Notes: generated by a model not told the origin, from the sequence alone. Positions 662-18,225 are shown, counted from the first letter of the stretch. The stretch: 64,000 bases of DNA from Thermoplasmatota archaeon (GCA_965234725.1 CBDDUX010000029.1:1752-65751); one strand, 5' to 3'. A program made the numbers and translations.

Positions 662-3600
662 TTATTCTTCTAGATCTCCAACAAAGGGAGAATCCATGCT
701 GTTTTCAAGCTCCTTATACCGGCCCTTCCTGGCTAATGTCACGATCAATAGCAGACCTAATATGATAAGAAGGATGATCAGAATTAACGAATAAGGAACC
801 TCTTCCTCACCTTCCTTCTCTTCAGCCCCATCATCATCATCCGTATCGTCATCAACAGGTCCGTCATCGTCATCATCATCGATGGGACCTGGACCGGGAT
901 CATGACCCGGGATGCTGTAGAGGGTGATGTTTCCAAGATCAAGGGTCTCATCGGGTAGGATGGTGAATGTTGTCTCATATGAATGATAACCATCCTTGGA
1001 TATCAACAGATGCCATTCTCCCATGCTAAGTGGATCAACAAAGGAGCTGAAGTATTGGTAGATGTTCTCCGATCCATCCGTCCGGTTAAGATAGATGTGG
1101 GCATTGATCCTGAAACCGGTCTCATTGTTAAGGAGGAATGTTTTTAAGAGTCCTTTATCCGTGACCGTGAAGTTAAACTCATTCTCTTCCAACGAATTCC
1201 CGGCAAGGTCCGATCCAGTAAATGAAATGAAATATGTTCTGCCTGGATCCATTGGTCCATCATGGACCAGGAAAACGGAATTGTTCTCCCAGATCAGGTT
1301 GAATCCTTCCTCCTCCAGACTGAATTCAATGGATGTCCTGTTTACCAATTCGGTGAATTCGAATCCGATCGATCCAAAAAGACCAAGGTCCTCATTCTCT
1401 GTGATCATCTTCACTTCGGGTCTCAATGTGTCTATTGTGAAATTCAAATAATCTTCATATGTGTTATCGAAGGTGTCATAGGTCTTGATGAAAACAGATA
1501 CTGTCCTGTCCCTGTCATTTTCGATCCATATAGTCCTGTTTTCGGCATCCAGGTCAAAATCCAGACTTCTGTAGGATGTGCCACCTCGATATTCCTTGAC
1601 TTTTACCGTCATTCGTTGGAAGTCGGACCAGTTCCCAAATTCGATCCATCCCACTTCCACTTCCCTGGTATTTACCAAGCTGTCTATAGCGGGACCTGTG
1701 AATTCAAATATACAGGGAGTAAGATCCACTGTGAAATTGGAGGTCCTGGTGGTGAGACGGCCCGCATTATCAACGGCCAGTACGGTAATGGTATGGGGTC
1801 CGCTTTCAATGTTCTCGAACCTCCAGGAATTGCTTTTATTCTGTTCGGCGGGATCGAGATAGTCACCCCCATCCAGTTTCACTCTGGTAATTGCAATACC
1901 GCTTCCTTCATCCTTGACATACCAATTTGCATTGAAATATTTCCCACCTACGATCGAGCCTTCTTCTGGATAGATGTTTGTAATATTGGGAGGTGCTGTA
2001 TCGATGTAGAAAACCACAGAGAGATCATATTCCTGAGAATGATCTGGTCCTGGAACAATGAATGTTAAAGTGTACCTTCCTTCGGATAGGTTCGTTATAA
2101 GCAGGGGTGATTCGTTCACATCAAGATTATACCAGTTCTCGATCGAGTGGTAACCTTTCTTCAACCTAAGATCGATATCAATATCATAAGGAGCCGATTT
2201 CTCAACGATCCAGGAAACGGTGATCTGTGTATTGGTGTGTATCTTATCATCGACCGGACTAATTACCGAAATAAACCCTGGGTCACCGTCAGGGATGATC
2301 GACCATGTTTTGGTGGGTGGACTTTCGATCTCTCCCTTGAAGGCAACAAGATAGTAGCTGTAAGATATATTGTGGATCAAGCCACGGTCCTCATAACTGT
2401 CGGTATACCAATGAGTTCTCTCATAAGGATCCAGTTCTATTATCGGCTCCATATCCACGGTGTCATTACCCCTGTATATTCTGTATCCATCTATCAGATC
2501 GAAGATGGACGACATTCTCGGCTTCCAGGTGAGGTATGCACTCCCCTTCTCAAAGGACCATACTTGGAAATCGTCTGGAGGCAGAATGGTATCTATGGAA
2601 ACGAGAGGATATTTGTCACTTGACATGGGAGTACCGTTCTCGGCATAGACGATGTAGGGGACATCGATTATTCCATTCCCATCGTTATCGGGTCCTGTCA
2701 GATCGGACCACTGATTGCCGATCCTGACCCCGTTATCATACCATACACCACCATATTTCTCATTCACATAGGTCCTGTTATCGATAACCTGGCTTTGACC
2801 TCCTGGATTGTTGTCCTCGAAATAATTCTTAACGACATAAGAATCAGCCTGCATGAATATTGCTGGACCATTGTTTTCAATGAAATGATTCAAAGTAATT
2901 GCCGATCCACCTATGTCCAATAATCCGATATTATTGCCTCTGAACTCATTATCGATCACATAGAAGATCGAATAACCGCTGTATATTTCCAGTCCTATCT
3001 CATTGTTTTTGAATATTGTATATTGAACGGTCGGATCTCTGCGCTGTCCGGTTCCCGAATAGACATCCTCATGCTGGCTTGATGTGATACCGATTGTATT
3101 TCCTTCGAATCTGCAACCGGATATGTTCATATGAGTATACCTGAACTTCATTCCCATTGCGGAGCCCGAAACACTGACATTTTCTATCTGCATGAAATCA
3201 CAATGTTCTGCATACACCCCTCTCTTGACCCCGGAGATCTCTATATTCTTGAGCAGGATATCATTGCAGTACATTATCTTCATCGCATCGACTGGAATCG
3301 ACATCGATATATCATGGATCGATCCCGATACATTGAAGAGGAAAAACTGGGAGTAATCTCCTGTAACATCGATATCCCTTTTGTGCTGATCTATGAAAAC
3401 AGGAATGCCATTTACGGTATTGTTGGATGGTATCAAGATTATCTGTTTTGATTTTGAAGGATCACCATGGTATTGATAACCTCTTACCCAGTTGACATCA
3501 AAACCACAGTTCACAAGTGTGTTATCGTAAAGCAGCTGTCCGCTCTCGGCTATGTATATGCCAGCTTCACTGCACCCTTCGATATAATTCTCCCTGAGCA

Positions 3601-6598
3601 CATTTCCGTATGCAGTTCCATATCGGACCTCGATACCGATCCCTGAAAATGAGAAATCGTTGTTTCTGATCCTATTGGTACCACCTCTGATCAACACAAT
3701 CCCTGCCAGATCATTGGATCGGCAGTCGTTGTCTTCAATGATCGAGCCGGATTGATAATAGAGATTGATACCGTTTCCATGATTTTCAACTATCTCATTA
3801 TCGGTTACGATTGATTGCTGTCCGTTGAGGTAGAGACCGTCCTCTTCATTTCCTGCTATTCTGTTGTTCTTGACAACCGTGTATTCTCCCCCTAGATAGA
3901 CACCTGTATGGAAGCCTTCAACCCTGTTTCCGGAGATCTCACCTTCAATGATCTGGTCAAGATACATACCGTTCTGAACATTTCTTTCGAAAGGATCGGG
4001 TCCTTCCAAAACGTATCTTCTTCCTATAATTGTGTTATTTTGCATGCTCAATGATTTTGCAAGAAAGATCTTCACTGGACGCGAGCAGTTGGTGAATCTG
4101 TTGTTTGAAATGTTAATGTTGTTAAAATTGTAACCATAATGAATGTTAATACCGTTGTTGAATTCCTCTACACTACATGATTCAAAGGTGATATTCTCAT
4201 CGTCATAGAACGAATAGAGCAGTGTAATACCATTATTAAAAGAACTGTTTTCAATGAATATATCCTTTGAATCGAAGGACCTTATTGGCCTCTTGCATCC
4301 GTTCATCGAAATATTTGATATTTTGATGTTTCTCGAATTCATGAGGGAAAGATAGTGTCCCCTTTCGTCAACAACCTGATTGGAAATTCTAGCGTTTGTT
4401 GCATTGATAAAAATGATCTGGCCTTTCCCGCTTGCATTGATCTCTAATCCGTGGAGGTCTGTGTCCTGAATGAGCATTATTGGGTCCCCGTTCAGGGTAT
4501 TGTTCATTGGAATATCGAATAGCTGATATCCGTTCAATATGCCATCGAATTGAATTCCAGATCCCTTGAAGGAATTGTTGTAGAGAGTGAGATATATGGA
4601 GGAAAGGATTTTGAAGATCCTGTTTTCAGTTATATCGAATGTGTTGTTTATCATCTCAGAATCCCTGACGTTCATCGTGATGTTGCCGTTTGTCAGAAAG
4701 GTGCAGTTTTCCATCCGGAAATATCCTCCGGTTATGATGGTGTCCTGATATCTGTTATTCTCAATTGATGAATCCTGGATCTTCAGGTTGTCGCAGTAGG
4801 TTGATGAAATGGGCCAGTTCATCGTGTCGTTGATCCTGCAGTTACTAATGGTCACATTTTCGGAATATGTGAGTAGAAATCCCCAGTCATCGGATCCTTC
4901 TATATCGAAATTCTCGAATCCGATATTGGATGACTGATGCACCACAGGTCCCTTGAAAGCATTTTCATGAGTTATGTTCCTGAAGATTACATTTGACGCG
5001 TTGAACAGGAGATACTGCGAATAATCATCTTCTATTACAGCTCCACCCATGTCAGTGTCCAGTATCGATAGGATCGGTTTTCCGTTTAGCGTGTTATTTG
5101 ATGATATCTCAACATTAACTCTGTTGTTCAGGTTGTAGTTGATGTTAATCCCTGTACCAGTCATGGTGTTTCCATATATCCTGTCCCGGTGTAATTGACC
5201 TATCGTGATAGAACTTGAGCTGCAGTTAGCGAAAATGTTGTTCCTGATAACATTTTTGACATCGTCCCGGTTTTGCATCAAATAGATGCCTGTGAGGGCA
5301 CTGTCGATCAGATTATCAGATATCACATTCCCGGTTGACCCACTGTATATATGAATTCCAGTTGAGATATTGTACAGTTTGTTTCTTTCGATTCTCGATC
5401 TCTCCGTTGCAGAAAGATAGATTCCGACATTGGACCCCCCGTATGGATAATTGGAGAAGATCTTATTATCCGATGCAAGGCAGTCGATTGATTTTGACAG
5501 GGTTATTCTGTACATGAAGTTATTCAAGATCGATGCATTTGAACATTCTGACAAAGCAACGTTACTGTAGTAATCTGTCTGATCCCGACTGTTGTTGAAA
5601 ATCTCAATATCCCCACATCGGAAAAAATTGAAATATATCTGATCATTATCATGAACCGTTATGTTGTATGAATCCTGGACTGTTGAATAAGATGAACTTG
5701 ATAAATTTACAAATTCCAGATTCCTGCAATCATGGAAGTTTGTGTTGTATTTGAGAAAACACGAATCGAAGGTTATATTCTCTGATCTCCTTGCTATGAT
5801 AAGCTGTGTGCTGAAATCATTTATGAAGATCTCCGAACAATCTGTAAGGTAAACAGAGGCATAGTCCTTTGTGGTTTCAACCAATTTTATCTCGCTTGAG
5901 TTTGAGATGCTTATGCTGTAATAGCTGGGTTTTCTGATGGTAAGATTTCTTGTGAGATCTATAATAATGCCGTCTCTCGATGTGCAGTTGCATAGTAAGA
6001 TATCTTCAACATCACTGACTGTGAAATCAGAATGATCATCATCATATCTGAGGTCTGAATAGAAATCCGATATCTCAAGCGATCCGGATCTCAAGGCTTC
6101 GAAACTGGGACCGTATCTCGATTCGATTTCTATTTTCCTTAGTTCGACGTTTTTACAATCTGCGATTCGTATCTTCGTCGTATTGATCTCGAAATAATTT
6201 CTCTCTTCGATCGTGATATTCTCGAAGATGAGATGAGAAGTTGTATTCGATAAGTGAATGAAGGGTATGATGTAGTGATCGGTTACTCCGGCTTCCAAGT
6301 CCTTGATCAGATAAGGATCAGATTCCGTCCCACTGCCTGTGAAATTCCATTCCTCTATGAATCCATTCAGCTCCGAATCTGATCTTATGGTAATGTTTGT
6401 GAAAGTATGGTCCTCTTCCTGATCCTCAGCTCTCGATGGGATTTTATCAAGATCACCAATCATATCCAATGGTTCGTTATCTCCCCCGGTCTCCCCTTCA
6501 GCTTGAAAGATCCAAATAGATGATGAAACAAGTAAGATGACTATCAAACAATTGATTGTTCTTCCCAAGAACTCTCCTCCTATCGATTCGTATAACAC
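662..6598 (-). CDS. Giant (1978 aa) C-terminally anchored surface protein: signal/anchor, long right-handed parallel beta-helix (PbH1/NosD-like) region, FN3, several Ig-like modules, CarboxypepD_reg-like domain, poly-Asp stalk, TM
   Basis: ORF track. N-terminal hydrophobic segment INCLIVILLVSSSIWIF. Hundreds of residues of ~22-aa beta-helix coils (e.g. GNRVEGFHTGVYLGGEYTVVKNNRIAGNEEDGLYLNGQQSIVTDNEIVENHGNGINLY). DNDGNGIIDVPY cap motif. FN3-like YLTWKP...YRIYRG...YYLVAF. Stalk IDDDDDDGPVDDDTDDDDG. TM LILIILLIILGLLLIVTLARKGR. Very many N-x-S/T sequons. Confidence 0.85.
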   Translation of the reverse strand: MLYESIGGEFLGRTINCLIVILLVSSSIWIFQAEGETGGDNEPLDMIGDLDKIPSRAEDQEEDHTFTNITIRSDSELNGFIEEWNFTGSGTESDPYLIKDLEAGVTDHYIIPFIHLSNTTSHLIFENITIEERNYFEINTTKIRIADCKNVELRKIEIESRYGPSFEALRSGSLEISDFYSDLRYDDDHSDFTVSDVEDILLCNCTSRDGIIIDLTRNLTIRKPSYYSISISNSSEIKLVETTKDYASVYLTDCSEIFINDFSTQLIIARRSENITFDSCFLKYNTNFHDCRNLEFVNLSSSSYSTVQDSYNITVHDNDQIYFNFFRCGDIEIFNNSRDQTDYYSNVALSECSNASILNNFMYRITLSKSIDCLASDNKIFSNYPYGGSNVGIYLSATERSRIERNKLYNISTGIHIYSGSTGNVISDNLIDSALTGIYLMQNRDDVKNVIRNNIFANCSSSSITIGQLHRDRIYGNTMTGTGININYNLNNRVNVEISSNNTLNGKPILSILDTDMGGAVIEDDYSQYLLFNASNVIFRNITHENAFKGPVVHQSSNIGFENFDIEGSDDWGFLLTYSENVTISNCRINDTMNWPISSTYCDNLKIQDSSIENNRYQDTIITGGYFRMENCTFLTNGNITMNVRDSEMINNTFDITENRIFKILSSIYLTLYNNSFKGSGIQFDGILNGYQLFDIPMNNTLNGDPIMLIQDTDLHGLEINASGKGQIIFINATNARISNQVVDERGHYLSLMNSRNIKISNISMNGCKRPIRSFDSKDIFIENSSFNNGITLLYSFYDDENITFESCSVEEFNNGINIHYGYNFNNINISNNRFTNCSRPVKIFLAKSLSMQNNTIIGRRYVLEGPDPFERNVQNGMYLDQIIEGEISGNRVEGFHTGVYLGGEYTVVKNNRIAGNEEDGLYLNGQQSIVTDNEIVENHGNGINLYYQSGSIIEDNDCRSNDLAGIVLIRGGTNRIRNNDFSFSGIGIEVRYGTAYGNVLRENYIEGCSEAGIYIAESGQLLYDNTLVNCGFDVNWVRGYQYHGDPSKSKQIILIPSNNTVNGIPVFIDQHKRDIDVTGDYSQFFLFNVSGSIHDISMSIPVDAMKIMYCNDILLKNIEISGVKRGVYAEHCDFMQIENVSVSGSAMGMKFRYTHMNISGCRFEGNTIGITSSQHEDVYSGTGQRRDPTVQYTIFKNNEIGLEIYSGYSIFYVIDNEFRGNNIGLLDIGGSAITLNHFIENNGPAIFMQADSYVVKNYFEDNNPGGQSQVIDNRTYVNEKYGGVWYDNGVRIGNQWSDLTGPDNDGNGIIDVPYIVYAENGTPMSSDKYPLVSIDTILPPDDFQVWSFEKGSAYLTWKPRMSSIFDLIDGYRIYRGNDTVDMEPIIELDPYERTHWYTDSYEDRGLIHNISYSYYLVAFKGEIESPPTKTWSIIPDGDPGFISVISPVDDKIHTNTQITVSWIVEKSAPYDIDIDLRLKKGYHSIENWYNLDVNESPLLITNLSEGRYTLTFIVPGPDHSQEYDLSVVFYIDTAPPNITNIYPEEGSIVGGKYFNANWYVKDEGSGIAITRVKLDGGDYLDPAEQNKSNSWRFENIESGPHTITVLAVDNAGRLTTRTSNFTVDLTPCIFEFTGPAIDSLVNTREVEVGWIEFGNWSDFQRMTVKVKEYRGGTSYRSLDFDLDAENRTIWIENDRDRTVSVFIKTYDTFDNTYEDYLNFTIDTLRPEVKMITENEDLGLFGSIGFEFTELVNRTSIEFSLEEEGFNLIWENNSVFLVHDGPMDPGRTYFISFTGSDLAGNSLEENEFNFTVTDKGLLKTFLLNNETGFRINAHIYLNRTDGSENIYQYFSSFVDPLSMGEWHLLISKDGYHSYETTFTILPDETLDLGNITLYSIPGHDPGPGPIDDDDDDGPVDDDTDDDDGAEEKEGEEEVPYSLILIILLIILGLLLIVTLARKGRYKELENSMDSPFVGDLEE

Positions 6599-6701
6599 CT
6601 CAATAACTTAGGGTTTTTGGTGGGTCATGGAATAAATACAATGATCCGAATGGATTGTACTCCTGCAATCTCTTTATTAAACACCATACCATTCCCCGAC
6701 C

Positions 6702-8780
6702 ATGGAAGAAAATTCCTGCAATGTTCCAGATCTTGAGAGGTTCTTCAGACCCCGCAACGTAGCTGTCATAGGAGCATCGGACAATCATAAGAAAATTGGA
6801 TTCAAGACTTTCAACAATCTTGTGAATGGTGGATTCAAGGGAGGTATGTTCCCTATTAATCGTGAGGGGGAAGATGTCTGCGGACAGAAGGGATTCAAGA
6901 CCATTGGAGATGTACCCGTAGAGATCGATCTGGCCCTCATCTGCATTCCAGCAAAGTTCGTCAATCAGGAACTCATCGAATGCGGGAAAAAGGGAGTCCC
7001 ATTCGTTGTCATCATCTCATCCGGGTTCAAGGAGATAGGAAACTACGATCTGGAAGAGGAGATCAAAAGGACCGCAAAGGAACAGAACATCAGGATACTG
7101 GGACCCAACGTATTCGGAATGATCTACACGCCAGTGAACCTGAACGCTCAGTTCGGTAACGATATGGTCCTGAAGGGGAATGTTGCCATCATCACTCAAT
7201 CAGGATCCCTGGGCATCGCCCTTATGGACCGGGTCTTTCAGGAGGGGATCGGTGTTTCCGCCCTTACATCCGTGGGGAACAAGGCGGACCTCTCTGACGA
7301 GGAGATCCTTGATTTCCTATGCAGTGATGAGAATACCAAGATCATTCTGATGTATATTGAAGGTCTGAAGGACGGAAGGGAGTTCATAAAGAAGGTCAAG
7401 AAGGTCTCAAGGATCAAACCAGTGATAATCCTGAAATCAGGAAGATCAAAGGCAGGGGCCAAGGCAGTTGCATCCCACACAGCTTCACTTGCAGGAGCGG
7501 ATTCACTTTTCGATGCCGCATTCAGACAGGCCGGTGCAATAAGAGCACCCACTCTCAGGGAGGCAATAGACTGGACAAGGGCTTTGAACGATCTTCCACT
7601 TCCAGATGCGGAAGAATGCCTTGTGGTAACGAACGGCGGGGGTTTCGGTATTCTCGCCATTGATGAATTGGGATTGTCAGGGGTCCCATTGTTCTACAAT
7701 ATTGAATGGATAGCAGAGAAACTCGGCCCACTTCTTCCACCATTTGCATCACTTTCGAATCCGGTGGATATCACCGCCCAGACACCACCGGAAAACTATA
7801 TCCAATGTCTGAAGGAAGCAATGAACGAACCAACCATAGGTTCGGTCATTGGTATCTATGGTGCTGTTTCAGGGATCGATGTGGAAAAGTTCACAAAGGA
7901 CCTCATTGAGGCCATGAAGGAACCAAAGAAACCCCTTGTTCTGTGCTACATCGGTGGCAGGGATGCGGATGTCCAGATCAGGGCCTTCAACGAGGCAGGA
8001 CTTCCCGCCTTCTATTTCCCAGAGGAATCCGTTTCATCGCTGGAGGTCCTATACCGATACAAGAAGTTCAAGAACTCAAGGGAACTGGACCTTCCACCCA
8101 TGGAGAAATGGGACCTGAAAGCAATTAAAAAACTTATTGACAGGACCAGAAAGGCTGGTCACCATTTCATGGACCTGGAAACCTCACTGGAATTCCTCAA
8201 GTCAGGACCCATAGAGATGTGTGAATATTCGGTGGTGGATTCCATTGACGGAGCCGTGAAGGCAGCGAGGAAGATCGGGTTCCCGGTGGTCTTGAAGGGT
8301 TCTTCCCCTGACCTCATCCACAAGACCGAAAGGGGTGGTGTTATAATTGATATCGACAACATAGAGGAACTGGTGGAGGCTTATGAGAAGCTGGAACCAA
8401 TATCAGAGAAGATAATCGTCATGGACCAGTTGACAGGAAGGGAAGTCATTGCCAGCTCCATCAGGGACAGGGTGTTCGGACCTGCGGTGATGTTCGGTGT
8501 TGGTGGGGTCATGGTGGAGGCCATGAACGATGTCTCGTTCAGGGTTGCTCCCATCTCTGAGATGGATGCCAGGGAGATGATGGACGAGATAAGGGGCAAA
8601 GCTCTGCTCGGGGCATTCAGAGGAAAGAAGGAAGCCGATAGGTCCAAGATCGCAAGAACGTTGAAGGCCCTTGGGGATGTGATGTTACAAATTGACGAGA
8701 TCACAGATATCGAGATCAATCCACTTTTCATATCTGAGAAAGGAGCCGTTGCAGTTGACTGCAGAGTAAGGATCGAGTAG
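6702..8780 (+). CDS. acd: Acetyl-CoA synthetase (ADP-forming), fused alpha-beta form (acetate--CoA ligase family; CoA-binding + succinyl-CoA-synthetase-like + ATP-grasp)
   Basis: 692 aa. N-terminus FFRPRNVAVIGASDNHKKIGFKTFNNLVNGGFKGGMFPINREGEDVCGQKGFKTIGDVP...DLALICIPAKFV...VVIISSGFKEIG is the canonical CoA-binding signature of archaeal ADP-forming ACS. C-terminal ATP-grasp-like part (GFPVVLKG...HKTERGGV). Confidence 0.9.
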   Translation: MEENSCNVPDLERFFRPRNVAVIGASDNHKKIGFKTFNNLVNGGFKGGMFPINREGEDVCGQKGFKTIGDVPVEIDLALICIPAKFVNQELIECGKKGVPFVVIISSGFKEIGNYDLEEEIKRTAKEQNIRILGPNVFGMIYTPVNLNAQFGNDMVLKGNVAIITQSGSLGIALMDRVFQEGIGVSALTSVGNKADLSDEEILDFLCSDENTKIILMYIEGLKDGREFIKKVKKVSRIKPVIILKSGRSKAGAKAVASHTASLAGADSLFDAAFRQAGAIRAPTLREAIDWTRALNDLPLPDAEECLVVTNGGGFGILAIDELGLSGVPLFYNIEWIAEKLGPLLPPFASLSNPVDITAQTPPENYIQCLKEAMNEPTIGSVIGIYGAVSGIDVEKFTKDLIEAMKEPKKPLVLCYIGGRDADVQIRAFNEAGLPAFYFPEESVSSLEVLYRYKKFKNSRELDLPPMEKWDLKAIKKLIDRTRKAGHHFMDLETSLEFLKSGPIEMCEYSVVDSIDGAVKAARKIGFPVVLKGSSPDLIHKTERGGVIIDIDNIEELVEAYEKLEPISEKIIVMDQLTGREVIASSIRDRVFGPAVMFGVGGVMVEAMNDVSFRVAPISEMDAREMMDEIRGKALLGAFRGKKEADRSKIARTLKALGDVMLQIDEITDIEINPLFISEKGAVAVDCRVRIE

Positions 8781-8782
8781 GA
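8738..8782 (+). repeat. Left copy of a 45-bp imperfect direct repeat (last 13 codons + stop of ACS); partner at 12671..12715
   Basis: Base-by-base alignment gives 40/45 identical. The 5 mismatches (8747, 8750, 8753, 8765, 8768) are all third codon positions and all synonymous. Confidence 0.9.
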
Positions 8783-8794
8783 TTGATCAGGACT

Positions 8795-11700
8795 CTATTT
8801 AAAAATAGCCGGATCGAATCTCGGCTCACTTTCGGTCCTGGATCCGCTCTTCTTTTTTCTTGCCACCAGTATACCCGCAACCAAGGAGGAAATGATTAGA
8901 ACTATGATGACCGAGATCAGAATGATCCAGGTCCATTCCAGGTATCCATCGGATTTCCCATCCTTTGATTCATCTTCCCTCACGATCAGGCTTGTAACAT
9001 CGGAGAATGCTCCTTCACCGATCTTATTGACGGCAGCGATATGGGAATAATAGGTTCCAGGACCAAGTTCCATAACACCAGAGTACTCCGTTGTATTGAT
9101 AGTTGATAGCAGATCGGCTGTTTTCTTGTCCCTACCCAAATATATATTAAAACCTGTAAGGGGAGATCCGCCGTTATCCTCTGGTAGTTCCCATGTCATA
9201 TACAGGCTTCCGTTTTCATATGATATTCGAACTTCTCTTACAGAAGATGGCACAGTTACGGGAGTTGCACTCGGTTTGGAACCGATCACACCTTTTCCCA
9301 ATTCATTCACTGCAATGACGGTATACCAGTAGGTGATGCCATTGTTCACATCGTTGTCCATGAAGGACTCGGTTCCATTGATGGTTGCAAGGTATTCCAT
9401 CATGTCAGGGGACCTACCCCTGAATATCTCATATCCGGTAACCTGATAACCACCATCCGAAACAGGAGGCATCCATTCAAGGTCCACCTGTCCGTTACCT
9501 GAGGATATCGAAAGATTTCTCACGGGTCCGGGAAATGTTCCGGGAGTGATGCAAATTTCCGAAGACCTCGGTCCGTCTCCCTTCAAGTTAAAGGCGTTGA
9601 TACAGTAAAAATACCTAATTCCGTTGGTAACATCTGGATCAGTGTAGTTCATTGAACCGGTTAACGTAGCGATCAGCTCCATCTCTTCCGAATTCGAGCT
9701 TCTGAAGATATTGTATCCATTCACCTTGAAGCCCCCATTATCGATAGGAGAAGACCAGGATAGGTTCACTTGACCATCTCCAAAATTTAGAATGAGGTTC
9801 GCAGGCCCCTCTGGGACTGTCCCAGGAGTTGAATGGCCTACATCGGAAAATCCGCTTCTCCCTTTTTTATTGACTGCAACGATCTTGTAATGATAGGTCA
9901 CACCGTTTTCGACCTCGCCGTCGACATATACATTATCATTGACCTTCTGTACTAGAAGACTTATATTCCCCTCATCCAAACCACGATGTATGTTATACCC
10001 CGATATAGTGAAACCTCCATCGTCCAGAGGGGGTAGCCAGGACAAGGTCACCTGTTCATCACCAGACGCACATTCGAAATCTATGGGAACTCTCGCCATG
10101 GTTCCGGGAACTGCGGAAATCTGACCACTCGAAGACCCTATCCCAACTTTATTAACTGCGAAGACCTCAAAATAATATCTAATTCCATTTTCCAGATCGG
10201 TGTCATTGAAGAAGTTTTCGTTAACTGACGCAATTTGATCAAGATCGGATGGATGAGTCCCACTGTAGACCAGATATTCCAACGGAGAGGTACCGCCATC
10301 TTCCAAGGGATCCTTCCAGGTAATATTGATGAATTTGTCACCTTCCTTCTTTTCAAGATCCCTGGGTGGGGTGGGCCTGGAGATCACCTCAATCCCTGCG
10401 CAGTAAACATCATACTCACCTCCATTATAGGATCTATCGAAAGCTCCATCTGTTGTTGGAAAATCCGTCGATGTTGTAAAACCCGCAATATTCACATAAC
10501 CCCGACCCTGATATCCTATATCCTGTCCATGGTCCTGACCTTTTCCTCCCAGATAGCGGGAGAATAGAATTGAAGTTCCGTTCCCGTTTATCCTGGAAAT
10601 GAATGCATCCGATAGTCCATTTAGGATATGGTCCGTATCCCTGGTGGTCGGAAAATCGCTGGACCCTGTTGTGCCTATTAGGTACGTATAACCTAAGGGA
10701 TCAATATCCAGGCCGTATCCTGCCTCCCATCCTTTTCCCCCGATGAATGTTGAATACACCAGTCCATCCCCGGAGACATTCATCTTTACCAGATAGGCGT
10801 CCATTCCTCCTCCATTGTAGAATTCATCATAAGCGCCAGAGGTCGTTGGAAAATCATTTGATCCGGTACCACCGATAAGATATGCGTAACAATCTCCATC
10901 CACAACAAGGCTCTGGGCATATTCCATACCTCCACCTCCCAAATATGTGGAATACTCGATGGTATCACCGGATAGCGAGAACTTCATGAGAAAAGCATCC
11001 CTCTCACCACCATTGAATGAATCATCGAATGCACCTGACGTGGTAGGAAGATCACTCGATCCCGTTTCGCCGAAAACATAAGCATTATAATTCTCATCAA
11101 CGTAGATCGCCATACTGGAATCCCATCCCTTACCCCCCAGAAAGGTCGAAAATACCAATGATCCTCCGCTGGGATCGAACTTAGTCAGGAAGGAATCGAA
11201 TTCACCGCCGTTGTATGTATCATCGAGCGATCCAGCTGTCGTTGGAAAATCCAGGGAGTTCGTCATACCGGTCATATATGCACAACCATTGCCATCCACC
11301 TTGATCCGGTATCCTCCATCGTAATCATTCCCTCCTAAGTAGGTCGAAAAATGAATCTCATTCCCTTTCCTTCCCAGCTTTAAAACGAAAGCATCGTTAT
11401 CATCCGTCGAATGGGATGTATTGTAAGCACCCGGTGTGACCGGAAAATCCACAGAATCCGTGAACCCTGTCACATAAGCACAGCCATCGTCATCAATATC
11501 GATTGCAGCACCCTTGTCGTTTCCAAGACCTCCGATGAAGGTTGAATAGTCCAGGCTTTCTCCGGAGCTGTTCAGTTTCGTAATATAGACATCATAATCA
11601 CCACCGTTGTAGTCTGGATACAATGAATCCTGGTTTGTCGGGAAATCCACTGATTCGGTGAATCTGGCAATATAGATACATCCTTCATCGTCAAGCGCAC

Positions 11701-12589
11701 TGTCCCAAACATCTTCCATTCCTCTGCCTCCGACATATGTGGAATATAGGGTTGGATCAATTACAACCTCGCGGGTTGTGTCGTACTTTTCCATTTGAAA
11801 GGAGAAGATGTCGCCATCCACAATGATATCCGTGTCAATCTTCAAAGATTCATTATCCGCATAGAATACATCAAGGTCTCCGTCCCTCAATCTGCCCTGA
11901 ACCGAGGTACCCATTAATATCTCCAGCTCACCCTCAACTGTGATCCGGAGATCCTCATGTCCCACAACTCTCATCTTGATCGATGAAGGATCGGATCCTG
12001 GTCTGAGGATCAGGTCATATTTCAAAAATCCATTCTCGGATTTGTAAAGGAGATCGATCCCATCCCAGATATCCTCATAGATGATCTCTCTGTAATTCGG
12101 GACATCAGTATACCATTTCGAGGGATCGTTGCCCTTGAAGAAATTCGACCTCCATGAAAGAGGATTCTCCCCTCGGGGGTTCATACCACTATATCCCTCA
12201 AATTCGATCTTGATAGTACTGTATTCACTTCGATACATATCAGTGGACATTCTGTCGAATCTTGAGGTAGTTAGAGATACGAAGGAATCCTTTCCGGCAT
12301 TCGAAATACCGACAGGATGCCTTATTAAAAGACCGTCTTCCATGAATCCGTAGACGATCTTGCCGACGGTGGAATGGAATATAACATCATCGTTTTCGAC
12401 CTGGCCTCTGTTCTCGGTGAAAACGATCTGATCGTTGCGACAAGTATCTGAAAATGATTCAAAGGCTCCTTCGGAAGCTGATGAAGGCTCATCGACAAGG
12501 CTGTTTCTCCATCCCGCATCCGATTCGGAGGTCAGTTGAAGCAACAATACCGCTCCCACCAACAACAGGGATAGGGGCATCTTTCTCAA
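8795..12589 (-). CDS. Surface protein (1264 aa): signal peptide, SBBP-type beta-propeller repeats, five FN3 domains, C-terminal TM anchor
   Basis: Signal MPLSLLLVGAVLLLQLTSESDA. Reiterated motif ...T.S.DFPTT.GA.D..YNGG..DAF..K....G..L.YSTYLGG... (about 9 copies). FN3 array. TM WIILISVIIVLIISSLVAGILVARKKK. The in-frame ATG at 12580 is a likelier start than the TTG at 12589. Confidence 0.85.
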   Translation of the reverse strand: MRKMPLSLLLVGAVLLLQLTSESDAGWRNSLVDEPSSASEGAFESFSDTCRNDQIVFTENRGQVENDDVIFHSTVGKIVYGFMEDGLLIRHPVGISNAGKDSFVSLTTSRFDRMSTDMYRSEYSTIKIEFEGYSGMNPRGENPLSWRSNFFKGNDPSKWYTDVPNYREIIYEDIWDGIDLLYKSENGFLKYDLILRPGSDPSSIKMRVVGHEDLRITVEGELEILMGTSVQGRLRDGDLDVFYADNESLKIDTDIIVDGDIFSFQMEKYDTTREVVIDPTLYSTYVGGRGMEDVWDSALDDEGCIYIARFTESVDFPTNQDSLYPDYNGGDYDVYITKLNSSGESLDYSTFIGGLGNDKGAAIDIDDDGCAYVTGFTDSVDFPVTPGAYNTSHSTDDNDAFVLKLGRKGNEIHFSTYLGGNDYDGGYRIKVDGNGCAYMTGMTNSLDFPTTAGSLDDTYNGGEFDSFLTKFDPSGGSLVFSTFLGGKGWDSSMAIYVDENYNAYVFGETGSSDLPTTSGAFDDSFNGGERDAFLMKFSLSGDTIEYSTYLGGGGMEYAQSLVVDGDCYAYLIGGTGSNDFPTTSGAYDEFYNGGGMDAYLVKMNVSGDGLVYSTFIGGKGWEAGYGLDIDPLGYTYLIGTTGSSDFPTTRDTDHILNGLSDAFISRINGNGTSILFSRYLGGKGQDHGQDIGYQGRGYVNIAGFTTSTDFPTTDGAFDRSYNGGEYDVYCAGIEVISRPTPPRDLEKKEGDKFINITWKDPLEDGGTSPLEYLVYSGTHPSDLDQIASVNENFFNDTDLENGIRYYFEVFAVNKVGIGSSSGQISAVPGTMARVPIDFECASGDEQVTLSWLPPLDDGGFTISGYNIHRGLDEGNISLLVQKVNDNVYVDGEVENGVTYHYKIVAVNKKGRSGFSDVGHSTPGTVPEGPANLILNFGDGQVNLSWSSPIDNGGFKVNGYNIFRSSNSEEMELIATLTGSMNYTDPDVTNGIRYFYCINAFNLKGDGPRSSEICITPGTFPGPVRNLSISSGNGQVDLEWMPPVSDGGYQVTGYEIFRGRSPDMMEYLATINGTESFMDNDVNNGITYWYTVIAVNELGKGVIGSKPSATPVTVPSSVREVRISYENGSLYMTWELPEDNGGSPLTGFNIYLGRDKKTADLLSTINTTEYSGVMELGPGTYYSHIAAVNKIGEGAFSDVTSLIVREDESKDGKSDGYLEWTWIILISVIIVLIISSLVAGILVARKKKSGSRTESEPRFDPAIFK
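8975..10375 (-). repeat. Five tandem FN3 domains (protein-level repeat) within the 1264-aa surface protein
   Basis: Five ~92-aa units each contain ...L.W..P.DDGG....GY.I.R.......L........Y.D..V.NG..Y.Y...A.N..G.G.... Confidence 0.8.
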
Positions 12590-12641
12590 TGTAACACCCC
12601 CTTCCCGGACATATCCATTCCATCCCTATTTCCGATTATAA

Positions 12642-12715
12642 CCATTATCTTCACATGAGAAGGATTGGAGGAAAGGAGCAGTAGCGGTTGACTGCAGGGT
12701 CAGGATCGAGTAGGA
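12642..12715 (+). pseudogene. Orphan 3' fragment of an ADP-forming ACS gene (encodes PLSSHEKDWRKGAVAVDCRVRIE*), preceded by an in-frame TAA
   Basis: 12672..12713 translates to KGAVAVDCRVRIE*, identical to the C-terminus of the intact ACS (8739..8780). Weaker similarity continues upstream (PL...EK). An in-frame stop lies at 12639-12641, so it is not part of a gene. Confidence 0.8.
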
Positions 12716-12844
12716 CCTTCTTAATAGATGTAGTGTCAAGTGGGGTAAAAGGTAGTTTTCCAGTTATCTAATTCGAATTGTTCTTCAAACCTTTCATTCC
12801 AAATGCAAAGATGTGATTGATCTATGCAATTTTACTGTTAAGTT

Positions 12845-13360
12845 TCATATGAACCCATCGATCATTCTCAAAGCTCTGGAATACAGAACCGTAGAGCAGT
12901 ACCATCCGCCCTCTATCATCATGTCAAGAGCATTTCTTGCCTGTTCTGGAGTTATTGCTCGATGAATGATCAGTTCCTTCAAGATCCAGAGACTTCCTTT
13001 GTGTTTGATCCCTTCCACTTCACATATGGATCTTCCGTAACTTTCATCTAATATCGCAATACCATTATCTCTCCTTGCAGCCTCTAATACATCCTTATCG
13101 GCATCTGATAGACTACGATTTTCTTTGAATAGGTCATGGATCTCTCCTTTTTTTACATCCACTACCTCAAATGGTTCCGATCGAATTATTCTTTCAATCT
13201 TCAACGCATCCGCAAGACCCCTCCTTTTCCCATTATTCACCACCTCTTCGAACACGGACAATGGCACGATAACATTGTATTCAAGTTCGGAGATTTTTTC
13301 GAGAATGTCCGCTTTTCCGAGATGGATCAATGGAGTAGAGTCGATTATGAGAAGATCCAT
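12845..13360 (-). CDS. PIN-like nucleic-acid-binding protein (DUF3368 family), putative toxin
   Basis: N-terminus MDLLIIDSTPLIHLGKADILEKISEL...VPLSVFEEV matches the DUF3368/PIN-like pattern. Its start overlaps the stop of the upstream UPF0175 gene (TAATG). Confidence 0.65.
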   Translation of the reverse strand: MDLLIIDSTPLIHLGKADILEKISELEYNVIVPLSVFEEVVNNGKRRGLADALKIERIIRSEPFEVVDVKKGEIHDLFKENRSLSDADKDVLEAARRDNGIAILDESYGRSICEVEGIKHKGSLWILKELIIHRAITPEQARNALDMMIEGGWYCSTVLYSRALRMIDGFI

Positions 13361-13644
13361 TATTCAAGGTCCTCCCCTGACCAATCCTCATCCACCCATA
13401 CCGTGTGGGTCTTCTTTACAAGGCCATTGAAATCCCAGAGATCCATACCAGCGATCTCTGCTGCCCTGTTGAAGGTGATCTGCCCTTCGGAAAGAAGCTG
13501 AAGGGCCTTCCTCTTCCTCCATTCCTCCAGTCCGGTGATCAGGAGCTTCCGTACTCCTCCGCTTCTCTCTATCTTCTCCTCCTCAATGAAGAGTTCAAGC
13601 TCTCTTTCGAGCTCATCGTTGATCCGTGTAGATACAACAGACAT
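13360..13644 (-). CDS. UPF0175-family antitoxin-like protein
   Basis: 94 aa. ...ALQLLSEGQITFNRAAEIAGMDLWDFNGLV... is the HTH-like core typical of UPF0175. Translationally coupled to the DUF3368 gene. Confidence 0.6.
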   Translation of the reverse strand: MSVVSTRINDELERELELFIEEEKIERSGGVRKLLITGLEEWRKRKALQLLSEGQITFNRAAEIAGMDLWDFNGLVKKTHTVWVDEDWSGEDLE

Positions 13645-13692
13645 GGAGATTAATTGTCTACAATGTATACATAGTTTACGAAGAAGGACCCT

Positions 13693-14301
13693 CTACAACA
13701 AGTCCATGACCTTGTCCCAGATCCGGTCCTGGACCTCGCTCTTACCAAGAGAGGCATCCACAACCAGCCATTTCGTCTTCAAACTGTCAGGTTGGACCTG
13801 GCCTCTTGAGAGTCTCTGGAAGGTCTTCCTCACATCTTCCTGGAAGGCCCTGTCCATCTCGAAATATTCCAGGTCCCCTCCCCGGTCCTTCATCCTTCTC
13901 TCCGATATCTTCGGGTCCAGATCAAGAAGGATGGCCAGATCAGGTTTATCGGCATATTTGTTGATATCTCCGACCCATTCCATATCCACCTTCTGCCCCT
14001 GATAGGCGATGGAGGAGTATACATATCGATCGGAGATCACGAACTTGCCGGAATCAAGAGCAGGCCTGATCTCTTTTTCAAGGTGTTCGATCCTGTCAGA
14101 CGCAAATAGCAGTGCAAGGGCCTCATCATCGAGGAAGGGATCGGACAGGTGGTCTCTTATCAACCTGCCAGTTGGTCCCTTGGTTGGTTCACTTGTAAGT
14201 AAAACACTCTTACCCAGGTCTGAAAGCCTTTCTTTCAAGCCTTTGGCCTGGGTCCCTTTTCCACTGCCGTCAATACCCTCTATGACGATGAAGGGAGACA
14301 T
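13693..14301 (-). CDS. tmk: Thymidylate kinase (dTMP kinase)
   Basis: P-loop FIVIEGIDGSGKGTQ. DRY motif region (ISDRYVYSSIAYQG). 202 aa. Confidence 0.9.
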   Translation of the reverse strand: MSPFIVIEGIDGSGKGTQAKGLKERLSDLGKSVLLTSEPTKGPTGRLIRDHLSDPFLDDEALALLFASDRIEHLEKEIRPALDSGKFVISDRYVYSSIAYQGQKVDMEWVGDINKYADKPDLAILLDLDPKISERRMKDRGGDLEYFEMDRAFQEDVRKTFQRLSRGQVQPDSLKTKWLVVDASLGKSEVQDRIWDKVMDLL

Positions 14302-14453
14302 CTATATCTTGAAACTTCCAATAGTATAAAAGTCTGTTCCGATAGGTCCTCAATTTCGTGAAGATGTCCGCTGTCAGAGAGTGGAAATGCCGCTTATTAC
14401 TTGTTCAAGCGGTGCTATGATCGATCCGGAGATGATACAAAACATCCTGTACC

Positions 14454-15944
14454 CTATACGAGAGATCGATCCCAGTAAGACCAACTTGTCATATCTCTGT
14501 CAAATGGTCTTCCATCCATGGACCGGATCATATACCTGTTCTTAGGGGAATCAAGGTCGTAGGAATATTCTTTTCCATCAGGAGTAGAGAATACGGTCCT
14601 CAGTTGGCTTTCATCCGGATTGGATCCTACAACATCCTCAAGGAGACCCTCGGGATCCTTGTCAGGAAATAGTGTAAATAGGGCCATTTGCTGTGAAGAA
14701 TAAGTGATAATAGGTATCTGACCTCTAATGAAGAGAGCCCAATTCCCTTTGGTGGAATGTGGAATCCAACCTTTCGGAATATGAAGCGGTCCTCGTGAGA
14801 CCGCAAATCTTTTTGCGACACCGGTCTGGTTCCGACCTCTGCATTTGTAATAGATACCCCCCATATGGAGAACATCTCTCAGGACCATAGCTCCATCTTT
14901 CAGGATCAATGTGATGGGCCTGGTCACTTCTATGGTGAAGAGCCTGGATCTGGAACCTCCGGCAGTTATCAGATAACCTGGGCCTCTGGAATAGATCTCC
15001 GGAGACCTGCCCTTACCATGACCGATCCTCAGAACATACTCTTCATTTTCTCCCTTTGAAATTTCCTCAACCTCATCAGGGAGTTTATAGGGGATCACTG
15101 CAGCCATGAGGGAATGTTCCTTTGCCTGGGATCCGGCATATAACATCACATCCTTATCCCCATGGGACCAGACCTTCATCATCCATGTTTGATAATCCCG
15201 GTCAAGTTCCTGCTCTCTTGCATGGTCGAGCCTTCTTCTGAAGGGAGGATATCTACGGAAGCTGAGGGAGCTTGAAGCATATTTCTCATTGAGACGGTCC
15301 AGAAGTTTTGTGGCCTCAGACGCCACATCCCTATCAGCGTATGCATGTAAGTTCAATAGAGCTGTAAGCGAATAGCCTATGTAAGGTTTGGAATTATATT
15401 CATCGAGACCATTTTCTCTCTTCTCACGAATGGAAGATGAGAGGAATGATCCCAGACCGTTCAATTGGTTGTCATAGGCATTTTCTTTTGAACCATGGTC
15501 CTTCAGCCACTTGTTCTTGAGATATCTGGAACCTTCCATCATGATTATGTGGTTCTCTGTCTCACCGATGAGACCGAAGGTGAAAGGAACCTTCAAGCTG
15601 CCTCTGGGACCTGAAAGGGGGAGAAGACGATCAAGCATCCAAGACCTGGTCTCCGGATACAAAACAGTATCATCACTTCCGAACTGGTAAAGGATCGTGG
15701 TAAGGACGGTTAGAGTGAAATCATAGTCACCTTTGTGAATGACCTTGATGTCAGTACCTGTACTTGACCATGGAAGGACCCTTTGAAGATATTCATTGAC
15801 CTTCTTGATGTCTTTTCCTTCCCTCAATTTCGCCAGACAGGTCCTGGGGGCGGATACCTTACCGGATTCCTTCCAGTCTGGGAGGTCCTGTTCCGCCCAC
15901 CAGGTTATGATATCGATCCCGTCATCACCGATCCCTGACAACAC
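14454..15944 (-). CDS. Hypothetical cytoplasmic protein (496 aa), family not recognised
   Basis: ORF track only. GTG start, no signal peptide or TM, no motif I can name. Confidence 0.5.
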   Translation of the reverse strand: MLSGIGDDGIDIITWWAEQDLPDWKESGKVSAPRTCLAKLREGKDIKKVNEYLQRVLPWSSTGTDIKVIHKGDYDFTLTVLTTILYQFGSDDTVLYPETRSWMLDRLLPLSGPRGSLKVPFTFGLIGETENHIIMMEGSRYLKNKWLKDHGSKENAYDNQLNGLGSFLSSSIREKRENGLDEYNSKPYIGYSLTALLNLHAYADRDVASEATKLLDRLNEKYASSSLSFRRYPPFRRRLDHAREQELDRDYQTWMMKVWSHGDKDVMLYAGSQAKEHSLMAAVIPYKLPDEVEEISKGENEEYVLRIGHGKGRSPEIYSRGPGYLITAGGSRSRLFTIEVTRPITLILKDGAMVLRDVLHMGGIYYKCRGRNQTGVAKRFAVSRGPLHIPKGWIPHSTKGNWALFIRGQIPIITYSSQQMALFTLFPDKDPEGLLEDVVGSNPDESQLRTVFSTPDGKEYSYDLDSPKNRYMIRSMDGRPFDRDMTSWSYWDRSLV

Positions 15945-16028
15945 ACCTGAACTATCGAAATACGATTAGAACTACTTTTTCCGGGATCCGATGAATATCC
16001 CCAAGGGTGACCGTTATCGATCGATCTA

Positions 16029-17480
16029 TCAGGCCAGCTTCTTCAATGTGAGGGAGAGAAGGTCCCAGAAATCCTTGACGGATGGGACCCTGACCCTTTC
16101 ATCAGGGGAGTGGGGGTTCTCTATCTGAGGTCCGAAGGAGGCCATGTCCATACCTTCGAACTTCTCGCCGATGATCCCGCATTCCAATCCCGCATGTATG
16201 GCCTTGAGCTCTGGGTCCTTCTCCCATAGCTCGATGGCCGCCTCCTTCAGAATCGCCAGGACCTTGGAATCAAGGTTGGGAAGCCATCCAGGATAGGCCT
16301 GTCCCCTCTCTGCATCGGCACCTGCAAGGACCGATATCGCCTCGATCTTGTCCCTGAGGGCCTCCAGCTGTGTATTGGAGGAGGATCGGGAAGCGAGTTG
16401 AATGTAAACTTCCTCCTCCGTCCTTATCTTCGCCATGGAGGTTGAGGTCTCAACAAGGTCGGGTATGTCAGGAGACATCCTGAACACACCATGTGGCAGT
16501 GAAACGATCAGATGAATGGTCCTTCTGGAATCCTCCGGGGTCATCATGCTCTCGGGTAGAGACGTTTCCTTCAATTCTATCGTCATGCCAGGTTCGATGC
16601 TCTTGTACTCGAATTTGATCTCCTCAAAGGCTTCCATGATCTCTTTCTTGATAGGTTCCAGATCCTCATTTGTAATAAGTACAACCTCGGCCTCCCTGGG
16701 AATGGCATTGTGCTTGTCCCCTGCGGTGAAATGGCCGAAGCCGAACTCATGTTCCCTGGCAACCTTCCACAGCATCCTTGCAAGAAGCTTGATCGCATTG
16801 GCCCTGCCTTCATGGATATCCACACCGGAATGACCCCCCTTCATGCCAGAGAAATTGATATAGAGAGCTTTCCCTGTGGCATCCTCCTTGAGGATTGCCA
16901 TCTTGATATCGGATTCCCCTCCACCAGCGCATCCAACGTAAAGGGCCCTCTCCTCCTCGGTATCGAGGTTCATGAACAATCTTCCTTCCAGCATGTCAGC
17001 GCCAAGTGCAAAGGCCCCGGTAAGGCCTGTCTCTTCATCGATCGTGAACAGACATTCAAGAGGTCCGTGAACGACATCTTTGGACTCCATCATTGCCAGA
17101 GCTGCGCAGACACCGATACCGTTGTCGGCTCCCAGAGTGGTTCCAGTTGCGTAGAGATAATCATCCACCATTCTTAGCTTCAAGGGATCCTTGGAGAAAT
17201 CGAAATCCGTATCCCTGTTCTTCTCACAAACCATATCCACATGTCCCTGAAGAACGACAATAGGGGATTTCTCCTTGCCAGGAGAAGCGGGGATCTTGAC
17301 AACGCAGTTACCTGCTTTATCCTTCTTCCAATCAAGGCCGTTCCTTTTTGCAACCTCTATGACGTAATCTATCGCCTTACCCTCGTGTTTGGAGCAGCGG
17401 GGGATCTGTCTCAGCATGTCAAAGTGCTTCCAAAGAAGCTTGGGTTCAAGTCCTGTAAGTACATCCGTCATCTTCATCAC
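16029..17480 (-). CDS. pepD: Aminoacyl-histidine (Xaa-His) dipeptidase, peptidase M20C
   Basis: LEPKLLWKHFDMLRQIPRCSKHE...VVLQGHVDMVCEKN...TTLGADNGIGVA... and the C-terminus GLECGIIGEKF...MDMASFGPQIENPHSPDERV are the PepD signatures. Confidence 0.9.
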   Translation of the reverse strand: MMKMTDVLTGLEPKLLWKHFDMLRQIPRCSKHEGKAIDYVIEVAKRNGLDWKKDKAGNCVVKIPASPGKEKSPIVVLQGHVDMVCEKNRDTDFDFSKDPLKLRMVDDYLYATGTTLGADNGIGVCAALAMMESKDVVHGPLECLFTIDEETGLTGAFALGADMLEGRLFMNLDTEEERALYVGCAGGGESDIKMAILKEDATGKALYINFSGMKGGHSGVDIHEGRANAIKLLARMLWKVAREHEFGFGHFTAGDKHNAIPREAEVVLITNEDLEPIKKEIMEAFEEIKFEYKSIEPGMTIELKETSLPESMMTPEDSRRTIHLIVSLPHGVFRMSPDIPDLVETSTSMAKIRTEEEVYIQLASRSSSNTQLEALRDKIEAISVLAGADAERGQAYPGWLPNLDSKVLAILKEAAIELWEKDPELKAIHAGLECGIIGEKFEGMDMASFGPQIENPHSPDERVRVPSVKDFWDLLSLTLKKLA

Positions 17481-17542
17481 CCGTGAATGAGTATCCGGGT
17501 ATTTTGAAGGGATGTAATAACAGTTGTGGGAGAATACCTCTA

Positions 17543-18166
17543 TTAAACCATTGCATCTTTCAATTGTTTGTAAGAAACGACACTGATCAGAAGCCAGAGC
17601 ATGAAGGGGATGATGGGTTTCTTTCGCTGATTGATGTTCAGCCCTCTTACCTCATCCATGAATTCCTCAATATTTGAGATCTGCTCCTCCAGATCTCTTT
17701 CGGTATTCCTGGCGATCCGGACCAACCTCTCCTCAATCTCTACCAATGCCCTTTCGGAATGTGCGTTTGCAGAAAGTCTTGTTGATTCCAGATACTGGGT
17801 AGCAGTTGCCACCTCGGCAATCACTCCGAGACTGTTGATCACCATGTCCCAGACCGTTCTATCCTCGAAGGACCTGAACTCCTCCAGGGCATTAAGCACC
17901 GGGAAAATACCGGAGATCACCCTTGCCGTAAGATTCCTCCCAACTATCTCCGGATCCGCTTCAAGGGTAAGACAGGCATCATGAAGTTTCAGACAATCAT
18001 TATGATGAGCGGAGGCAAGATCGGAAACCATTACGTTTTCGGATGCTTCGACCCCGATCACTATCAATCGTGCCTCTCTTACCATTCTCAGAGCATTCTT
18101 GGAGGTCGAGGTCATCATGAACTGGGCAAGAGCCCTGTCCATTCCTTCGGAATCCATTTCTGTCAT
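17543..18166 (-). CDS. Hypothetical all-alpha/coiled-coil protein with C-terminal tail-anchor TM (207 aa)
   Basis: ORF track. C-terminal IIPFMLWLLISVVSY hydrophobic span after a basic patch (NQRKKP). Lies directly downstream of flotillin on the same strand. Confidence 0.55.
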   Translation of the reverse strand: MTEMDSEGMDRALAQFMMTSTSKNALRMVREARLIVIGVEASENVMVSDLASAHHNDCLKLHDACLTLEADPEIVGRNLTARVISGIFPVLNALEEFRSFEDRTVWDMVINSLGVIAEVATATQYLESTRLSANAHSERALVEIEERLVRIARNTERDLEEQISNIEEFMDEVRGLNINQRKKPIIPFMLWLLISVVSYKQLKDAMV

Positions 18167-18180
18167 GGGGGAACCTCATT

Positions 18181-18213
18181 AGAAAGAAAGAGGGGGGAGG
18201 GTCATCCCCCCTC
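18181..18213 (-). terminator. GC hairpin followed by a T-rich stretch between flotillin and the downstream gene (terminator/attenuator-like)
   Basis: 8-bp perfect stem gagggggg (18190-18197) / cccccctc (18206-18213) with an 8-nt loop. On the minus strand it is followed by tttctttct (18181-18189). Confidence 0.45.
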
Positions 18214-18225
18214 ACCGGAACCGGA

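Follow-up and report, generated by a model that had tools for sequence, protein, structure and literature searches.

In experiments with naturally transformable bacteria, homology-facilitated illegitimate recombination and Campbell-type crossovers use one homologous anchor to import the adjacent foreign DNA, with no dedicated recombinase and with the possibility of a short duplication of the anchor end. To our knowledge, no such event has been demonstrated in Thermoplasmatota. The flexible genomic islands of marine microbes occupy a fixed slot between conserved genes and hold strain-specific, divergent genes for surface structures; replacement islands swap by recombination in their flanks and leave no duplicated gene end. 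Among elements that integrate into gene ends, the e14 prophage occupies the icd gene of Escherichia coli, and recombination across icd and its duplicated end icdC changes mostly synonymous sites (PMC13626634). Archaeal integrated mobile genetic elements (iMGEs) are bordered by direct repeats of the target gene end, supply a gene end with its stop codon, and have attachment (att) sites of ∼45 bp in Crenarchaeota (Krupovic et al. 2019, PMC6563490). Cis-mobilizable elements (CIMEs) are decayed bacterial integrative and conjugative elements or integrative and mobilizable elements, mobilised by a related element that integrates beside them (Guedon et al. 2017, PMC5704250). The present analysis concerns a 64,000-nt stretch of DNA from a Thermoplasmatota archaeon (GCA_965234725.1, CBDDUX010000029.1:1752-65751), hereafter the window, in which a gene for a giant surface protein lies between two copies of the 3′ end of a housekeeping gene encoding ADP-forming acetyl-CoA synthetase (ACS). 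The kind of scar is already known from e14 in icd, from archaeal iMGEs in gene 3′ ends and from CIMEs. Specific to this locus are the host lineage, the giant surface-protein cargo, a coding-like orphan gene end that matches a living allele, and the presence of several such cassettes in one genome.

The window corresponds to C29:1752-65751 of a 3.5-Mb metagenome-assembled genome (MAG; G000) consisting of 114 contigs, and the sequencing runs that contain its sequence come from marine sediment. The target gene encodes an ACS of 692 aa (6702-8780, + strand; Pfam CoA_binding, Succ_CoA_lig, Ligase_CoA_2 and ATP-grasp_5), with orthologues across the family at 64–97% amino acid identity. The gene is intact and ends in the left, or L-type, copy of the repeat (8738-8782, + strand), which comprises the working last 13 codons, the stop codon and 2 nt. 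The right, or R-type, copy (12671-12715, + strand) is an orphan ACS 3′ end. The two form a direct repeat on the same strand with 40 of 45 positions identical, and blastn against the whole 3.5-Mb genome recovers the second copy at E = 3e-10. All five mismatches, given as left/right (8747/12680 C/A, 8750/12683 T/A, 8753/12686 A/G, 8765/12698 A/G and 8768/12701 A/C), fall on third codon positions of the ACS frame and are synonymous; either copy translates to KGAVAVDCRVRIE*, and the first 9 and last 14 nt are identical. An in-frame TAA at 12639-12641 lies ahead of the orphan, which is accordingly a fragment. A preliminary description of this DNA had reported the repeat, its synonymous differences and the stop codon, all of which alignment and translation bear out. 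The weaker similarity that it saw upstream (PLFISEK versus PLSSHEK plus DWRK) did not hold up: local and anchored alignments of the ∼30 or ∼100 nt ahead of each copy do not outscore shuffled sequences or windows drawn at random from the genome (p = 0.5-0.98), and on the orphan side the only match to an nhmmer profile built from 20 ACS ends is 12671-12711. The orphan therefore comprises 45 nt and is not a longer decayed copy of ACS.

Comparison with related populations reveals that a segment of 3,888 bp, its limits exactly those set by the repeat, is present in some and absent from others. The closest species representative, G004 (locus L035), belongs to the same genus and has an empty site, in which ACS is followed by the homologue of 12716 onwards, the DUF3368/UPF0175 pair, tmk, orf496 and an M20 gene. 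By blastn, window positions 6657-8783 and 12671-24000 align to contiguous G004 sequence with a single 45-mer; the two ACS genes are 90.7% identical in nucleotides. Evidence from the runs designated X comes from assembled contigs, not raw reads, and contigs drop rare variants. In X2, X3 and X6, three runs from two samples of another sediment study, contigs also represent the empty site: they match 8300-8737 and then jump to 12671-13010, skipping 3933. The borders of the indel coincide exactly with the repeat in G004 and in X2, and the flank found after ACS in G004 directly adjoins the orphan in the window. The empty site that the preliminary description proposed to look for, with ACS directly followed by the 12716 flank and the pair, thus exists, and the occupied arrangement is not common to all relatives.

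The empty sites also bear on the history of the two copies. When aligned to the empty site of G004, the X2, X3 and X6 contigs have a single ACS end that is R-type at all five positions that separate the window copies, and it further agrees with the orphan at a sixth site where only G004 differs and at two flank positions after the stop. The left copy matches the working ACS end of G004 at 43 of 45 positions and the orphan at 39 of 45; the codons AGA GTA are common to the left copy, G004 and G001. As judged from these patterns, the repeat copies diverged as coding sequence in different lineages, in agreement with the preliminary description. The X2 lineage differs from the window at 107 of 2092 nt over ACS (5.1%), and the share of 31-mers in common is 0.24 for ACS and 0.31 for 13400-23000; this similar sharing on both sides identifies X2 as a sister lineage, ∼4-5% diverged. 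A candidate donor tract in the last 190 nt of ACS was rejected: divergence from X2 looked higher there, but the whole gene differs by 5.1%.

The insert (8783-12670) is missing from the empty-site genomes (blastn against G004; X2 contig) and holds a single open reading frame (ORF) between margins of 12 and 81 nt, so that the repeats bracket exactly the gene and its upstream region, as first described. The cargo gene (8795-12589, − strand) encodes a 1264-aa surface protein with a signal peptide, DUF7948, SBBP beta-propeller repeats, three FN3 domains and a C-terminal transmembrane anchor with a basic tail (domains from Pfam, termini read from the sequence); the probable start is an ATG at 12581. 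Its stop lies 14 nt from the convergent ACS stop, and its start is 81 nt from the orphan. The upstream region inside the insert (12590-12670, − strand) contains a TATA-like TTATAA at 12636-12641 that may serve as a promoter. The cargo family is hugely expanded, with 34 matches to the query in this genome, and the closest homologue among 5.8 billion proteins is only 45% identical. The tetranucleotide composition of the insert lies at the 55th percentile of the genome, and both this value and its GC3 are typical, also relative to other giant surface genes.

Neither ORF analysis nor Pfam detects a recombinase, an integrase remnant or a mobile-element gene in or beside the insert, and the window holds no tRNA. 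The first reading, that no integrase lies inside, is thus confirmed, and 'integrase-less cassette or replacement island' is a fair description of an insert without a recombinase. The genome does encode recombinases elsewhere: seven tyrosine-recombinase (PF00589) matches all lie on contigs other than that of the window. The cargo has no match in IMG/VR viral contigs, and no intact related mobile element is present in the window, in IMG/VR viral contigs or in the gene maps of relatives. A first metagenome scan with a single ACS protein as query returned no match.

Like e14, the insert lies in the 3′ end of a housekeeping gene, with the working end on the element side and a C-terminal fragment at the far end (PMC13626634). 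Whereas e14 is a 15-kb prophage that encodes an integrase and excises on SOS induction, the insert consists of a single cargo gene without a recombinase, and no excision is seen among the contigs. With archaeal iMGEs (PMC6563490) it shares direct repeats at its borders that match the single attB-like copy of the empty site, empty sites in close relatives, and a replacement end with stop codon that keeps the target gene intact, while the orphan equals the ACS end of an empty-site lineage. Those elements encode integrases or casposases and other mobile genes, whereas this insert is filled by one surface-protein ORF; the Thermoplasmatota lineage lies outside that survey (PMC6563490). The retention of attL- and attR-like sites together with the absence of integration and transfer genes is also the hallmark of CIMEs (PMC5704250), although the host here is archaeal and no related intact element is known here.

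The interval between ACS and tmk is a family-wide hot spot for variable surface genes, and its contents differ in nearly every relative, as revealed by gene maps of 20 loci (the window and 19 orthologous loci from relatives). In G003 and G009 tmk directly follows ACS; G004 and L065 have only the DUF3368/UPF0175 pair after ACS; G001 and G022 have the pair and then a 30%-identical SBBP gene in the opposite orientation; G018 has a co-directional SBBP gene after ACS; and other relatives have unrelated genes there. The window arrangement recurs in the JGI metagenome contig L061 and the near-identical L067, which carry a giant Big_13 gene, ACS, a convergent 1263-aa SBBP gene and DUF3368/UPF0175. The ACS of L061 is 75.7% identical to that of the window, and its SBBP homologue is syntenic, of similar length and in the same orientation, with 45% amino acid identity; neither L061 nor L067 has an orphan ACS end. 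L065, likewise a JGI metagenome contig, is without the SBBP gene although its ACS is 99.4% identical to that of L061. The breakpoints between L061 and L065 fall exactly at the ACS stop codon (TAA versus TAG) and the DUF3368 stop, with 110 unrelated nt in place of 4,003 nt and no duplicated end. Such breakpoints at both stops indicate replacement through conserved flanks, not att-type insertion. The slot and the cargo family are thus exchanged among relatives. Like flexible islands, the slot holds divergent surface genes in one place; flank swapping without duplication fits L061 and L065, but not the 45-nt orphan of the window.

Traces of ACS ends occur in two further relatives. In G016 (L048, ACS-oriented 2695-2739), a decayed orphan of ∼45 nt, RGSTSVDFRVRIG* (nhmmer E = 0.046), lies 1.5 kb downstream of ACS behind other cargo, a 449-aa gene of unassigned family. 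In G009 (L042, ACS-oriented 7805-7818), 14 nt of the ACS end (TGCAGGGTCAGGAT) are repeated 8 nt after the stop.

The window is not the only site of this kind in its genome. A genome-wide, BLAST-based repeat scan, for which diverged repeats shorter than ∼40 nt are below detection, revealed two further gene-end cassettes without an integrase, on contigs C40 and C59. The C40 repeat (L078, 56468-56512/60478-60522) corresponds to the end of a 112-aa cupin gene, its last 14 codons with the stop; the 45-nt copies agree at 42 of 45 positions, lie 4.0 kb apart and enclose an FN3 protein, small transmembrane proteins and a radical-SAM/SPASM gene. Both copies are also present in G004, whose orphan has non-synonymous changes; the cargo and orphan segment is missing in G003, where the gap is wider (56488-61242). 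C40 is an older event. The C59 repeat (L079, 13235-13283/16551-16599) is a 49-nt 3′ end of a PqqD-like gene bracketing a 3.3-kb ABC-3C-like defence pair (HNH/CTD10 and DUF2326), and G004 has the exact empty site with one copy. The C59 orphan retains the native tail and stop common to G004, whereas the working copy has a different, shorter tail, matching the element-supplied gene ends described by Krupovic et al. (PMC6563490). Relative to G004, the C59 variant pattern switches mid-repeat, which suggests reciprocal exchange between two complete sites; an orphan decaying neutrally could give the same picture. Just within the C59 cargo, beside the orphan, is a perfect palindrome of 11 bp (ATATCGGTCAA..TTGACCGATAT).

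From these comparisons we infer the direction of the event (an insertion, not a loss), the identity of the native copy and the enzymology. Since the orphan directly adjoins the native flank and equals the end with which ACS terminates in the nearest empty-site population, it would on the simplest account be the displaced native ACS end, and the working end would have come with the insert. The reading favoured here, with a probability of about 0.55, is that the gene was gained by host-recombination import from a related Thermoplasmatota lineage. The donor would have had ACS and the SBBP gene as convergent neighbours, and the incoming DNA would have comprised the last 13 codons and stop of the donor ACS, the 12-nt spacer, the gene and its 81-nt upstream region. 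Joined to the recipient chromosome through ACS homology, the donor end would now close ACS, and the last 45 nt of the recipient gene would have been pushed 3.9 kb downstream to become a non-coding orphan at the native flank. No element-encoded recombinase would take part, and host recombination would do the joining along one of two routes: either a circularised fragment would have entered by a single crossover of Campbell type inside the 45 nt, or one illegitimate joint, 45 nt before the end of ACS, would have accompanied a homologous crossover in that gene.

Two lines of evidence point to a relative as the donor, namely the composition of the insert, typical of the genome, and the salt-lake run X9, whose low-depth contigs are ∼94% identical to the cargo (76 differences in 1261 nt) and carry an L-type ACS end (at least two of three checkable sites agree and at most one deviates). 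The X9 DUF3368, tmk and orf496 are only ∼90% identical to the window (95 differences in 991 nt), and the X9 contigs leave the right-hand cargo junction uncovered. Its cargo is less diverged than its flank (z ∼3.2 by our own arithmetic), which suggests exchange of the cargo between lineages. In the salt-marsh run X4, pieces of the cargo occur at 99-100% identity. Host recombination is favoured by the sister cargo that occupies the same slot elsewhere without repeats, by the exchange through flanks in L061 and L065, and by the native-like composition of an insert in which no mobile-element genes were found.

Several observations weigh against this import by host recombination. The one-sided route requires an illegitimate joint that happens to fall within ACS, and no clear microhomology is present there beyond GA/AG, 1-2 nt being common at 12670/12671; TGAGAAGGA near the joint resembles TGAGAAAGGA of ACS, but the upstream similarity there is not significant. 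The donor tract that homology-facilitated illegitimate recombination is expected to leave in its anchor is not detectable upstream of 8738, as divergence from X2 in the last 190 nt does not exceed the gene average. Likewise, the mosaic breakpoint that the preliminary description proposed to seek in ACS is absent, since in a sliding comparison with G004 and 13 other orthologues identity stays level along the gene, with the window closest to G004 throughout. Cassettes of this architecture recur, and their repeats are alike in length (45, 45 and 49 nt in this genome, ∼45 nt in G016), as an att-type mechanism predicts; that argument is weakened by the detection limit of the scan, which may truncate the length distribution at ∼40 nt. 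The mid-repeat switch in C59 resembles a crossover between full-length sites, and the greater closeness of the left copy to G004 gives the opposite polarity some probability.

The most serious alternative, tentative and less probable than import by host recombination, is an att-type cassette, in which the 45-mers would be attL and attR and the incoming attP would have carried a homologue of the ACS end. The insert would then be either a decayed, CIME-like integrative element reduced to its cargo or a minimal cassette that depends for its movement, in trans, on a chromosomal tyrosine recombinase, of which the genome encodes seven. Its anatomy is the classical one, with a target-restoring end as in e14 and icd/icdC (PMC13626634); archaeal elements lie in 3′-distal regions of protein genes, with a crenarchaeal median att of 45 bp (PMC6563490); and CIMEs provide the precedent for loss of the integration genes (PMC5704250). 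The three cassettes of this genome differ in cargo (a surface gene, FN3 with radical SAM, and a defence pair), the G016 orphan stands behind yet another gene, G009 bears a 14-nt scar right after its ACS stop, and the variant pattern of C59 switches in mid-repeat. Against these stand the lack of any integrase, remnant or mobile-element gene in or beside the insert, and the lack of a common motif among the ACS, C40 and C59 repeats. The sister cargo of L061 and L065, moreover, comes and goes in a manner that is not att-type, and limited detection may account for the similar lengths of the repeats. The very deep, source-like run X1 (word depth ∼2300) contains the occupied allele only, with no contig for an empty site or a circle junction, although this absence is weak evidence given that contigs drop rare variants. 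The preliminary description had named both att-like integration and recombinational import; both still stand, and the data do not decide between them.

An extension of the att-type alternative, which appears improbable at present, is that sediment Thermoplasmatota harbour cassettes of one or a few genes (giant surface proteins, defence pairs) moved by a recombinase in trans, with a ∼45-nt copy of a host gene end as docking arm. If true, insertion, excision and swapping at the 3′ ends of housekeeping genes such as ACS would bring about rapid turnover of cell-surface and immunity genes.

The reverse polarity is doubtful. It would make the left copy native, as in G004, and have the orphan arrive with the cargo, the X2 lineage having later excised the segment across the repeat and kept an R-type ACS end. 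The 43/45 and 39/45 matches to G004 and the shared AGA GTA codons speak for it, and the identical first 9 and last 14 nt of the repeat permit a crossover at either edge; however, 2 and 6 differences from G004 are not significantly different, two events are needed in place of one, the orphan is contiguous with the native flank, and the orphans of C59 and G016 carry the native or family-typical end. Finally, descent of the orphan from an old tandem ACS duplication unrelated to the surface gene has nothing beyond the repeat itself in its favour and is refuted by the null alignments and nhmmer result upstream of 12671, by indel borders that equal the repeat exactly in G004 and X2, and by an orphan with synonymous differences only that equals the living ACS end of X2.

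The locus provides a clean case, dated by sequence, of an uncultured sediment archaeon acquiring a giant surface gene with its housekeeping target unbroken, in which the displaced end is still coding-like and equals a living allele in another population. Together with C40, C59 and the beta-helix gene described below, it identifies conserved-gene 3′ ends as places where cell-surface and defence genes enter the genomes of this lineage. For the annotation of MAGs, orphan gene ends signal recent gene gain, and they are useful for picking loci at which to test for a dedicated recombinase. The case alone reveals no new mechanism.

The native intergenic flank downstream of ACS (12716-12844) is 81% identical to the sequence directly after the ACS stop in G004 and is also present in the X2 contig. 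It is followed by a resident pair outside the insert (12845-13644, − strand), a PIN-like DUF3368 protein of 171 aa (Pfam) and a UPF0175 protein of 94 aa (assigned from the precomputed Pfam annotation of the L061 homologue), which is found in the empty-site G004 and X2 as well. The pair is toxin-antitoxin-like and has locally low divergence from X2/X5: the 3′ part of DUF3368 (12845-13214) differs at 3 of 329 nt from the X2/X5 population, compared with ∼4-5% for ACS and the wider right flank. A long imported block, considered on the basis of this near-identity, was dropped, as the 31-mer baseline is ∼4-5% on both sides. In G004, ACS itself (L035 14975-17051) is split into two overlapping ORFs of 358 and 372 aa by a frameshift near codon 330, so that the gene is either a pseudogene or affected by an indel in the assembly.

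On the other side of ACS lies a 1978-aa beta-helix/NosD/Big_13 surface gene (662-6598, − strand; Pfam), a second lineage-variable giant gene. Neither G004 nor the X2 lineage has bases 757 to ∼6650; all that either retains of the gene is its last ∼95 nt (transmembrane-anchor codons and stop; L035 reverse-complemented 2810-2905 in G004), and the junction is identical in the two. Of these, X2 is the closer to the window, and the deleted allele therefore seems to be one that different lineages share. Some 50 nt past the stop codon of this giant gene, at 584-614 (− strand), is one of 13 genome copies of a dispersed 31-nt motif, GGCAAAATCTAAATGGTGAGAAGATGTTTCC (up to 5 mismatches), which flank giant surface genes; the others lie on C17 (three), C37 (two), C59 (two), C18, C23, C50, C68 and C101.

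Other repeats from the scan were rejected as gene-end cassettes: those of C28 and C74 are internal or paralogue repeats, C3 49139/51893 is a tandem paralogue pair, those of C37 and C17 are the dispersed 31-nt motif, and that of C102 is intergenic. Longer direct repeats of 110-234 nt surround blocks of 6.6-11 kb at C67:26390-26499/37643-37750, C44:9070-9303/19296-19527, C53:5046-5211/11616-11779 and C72:5036-5182/14802-14948. The C67, C44 and C53 blocks contain giant genes (854-2122 aa), and the C72 block contains only genes of ordinary size. The C67 repeat includes a GC hairpin; in C44 the duplicated sequence is a small ORF, and an integrase-like gene and a tRNA-Thr lie just beyond the repeat.

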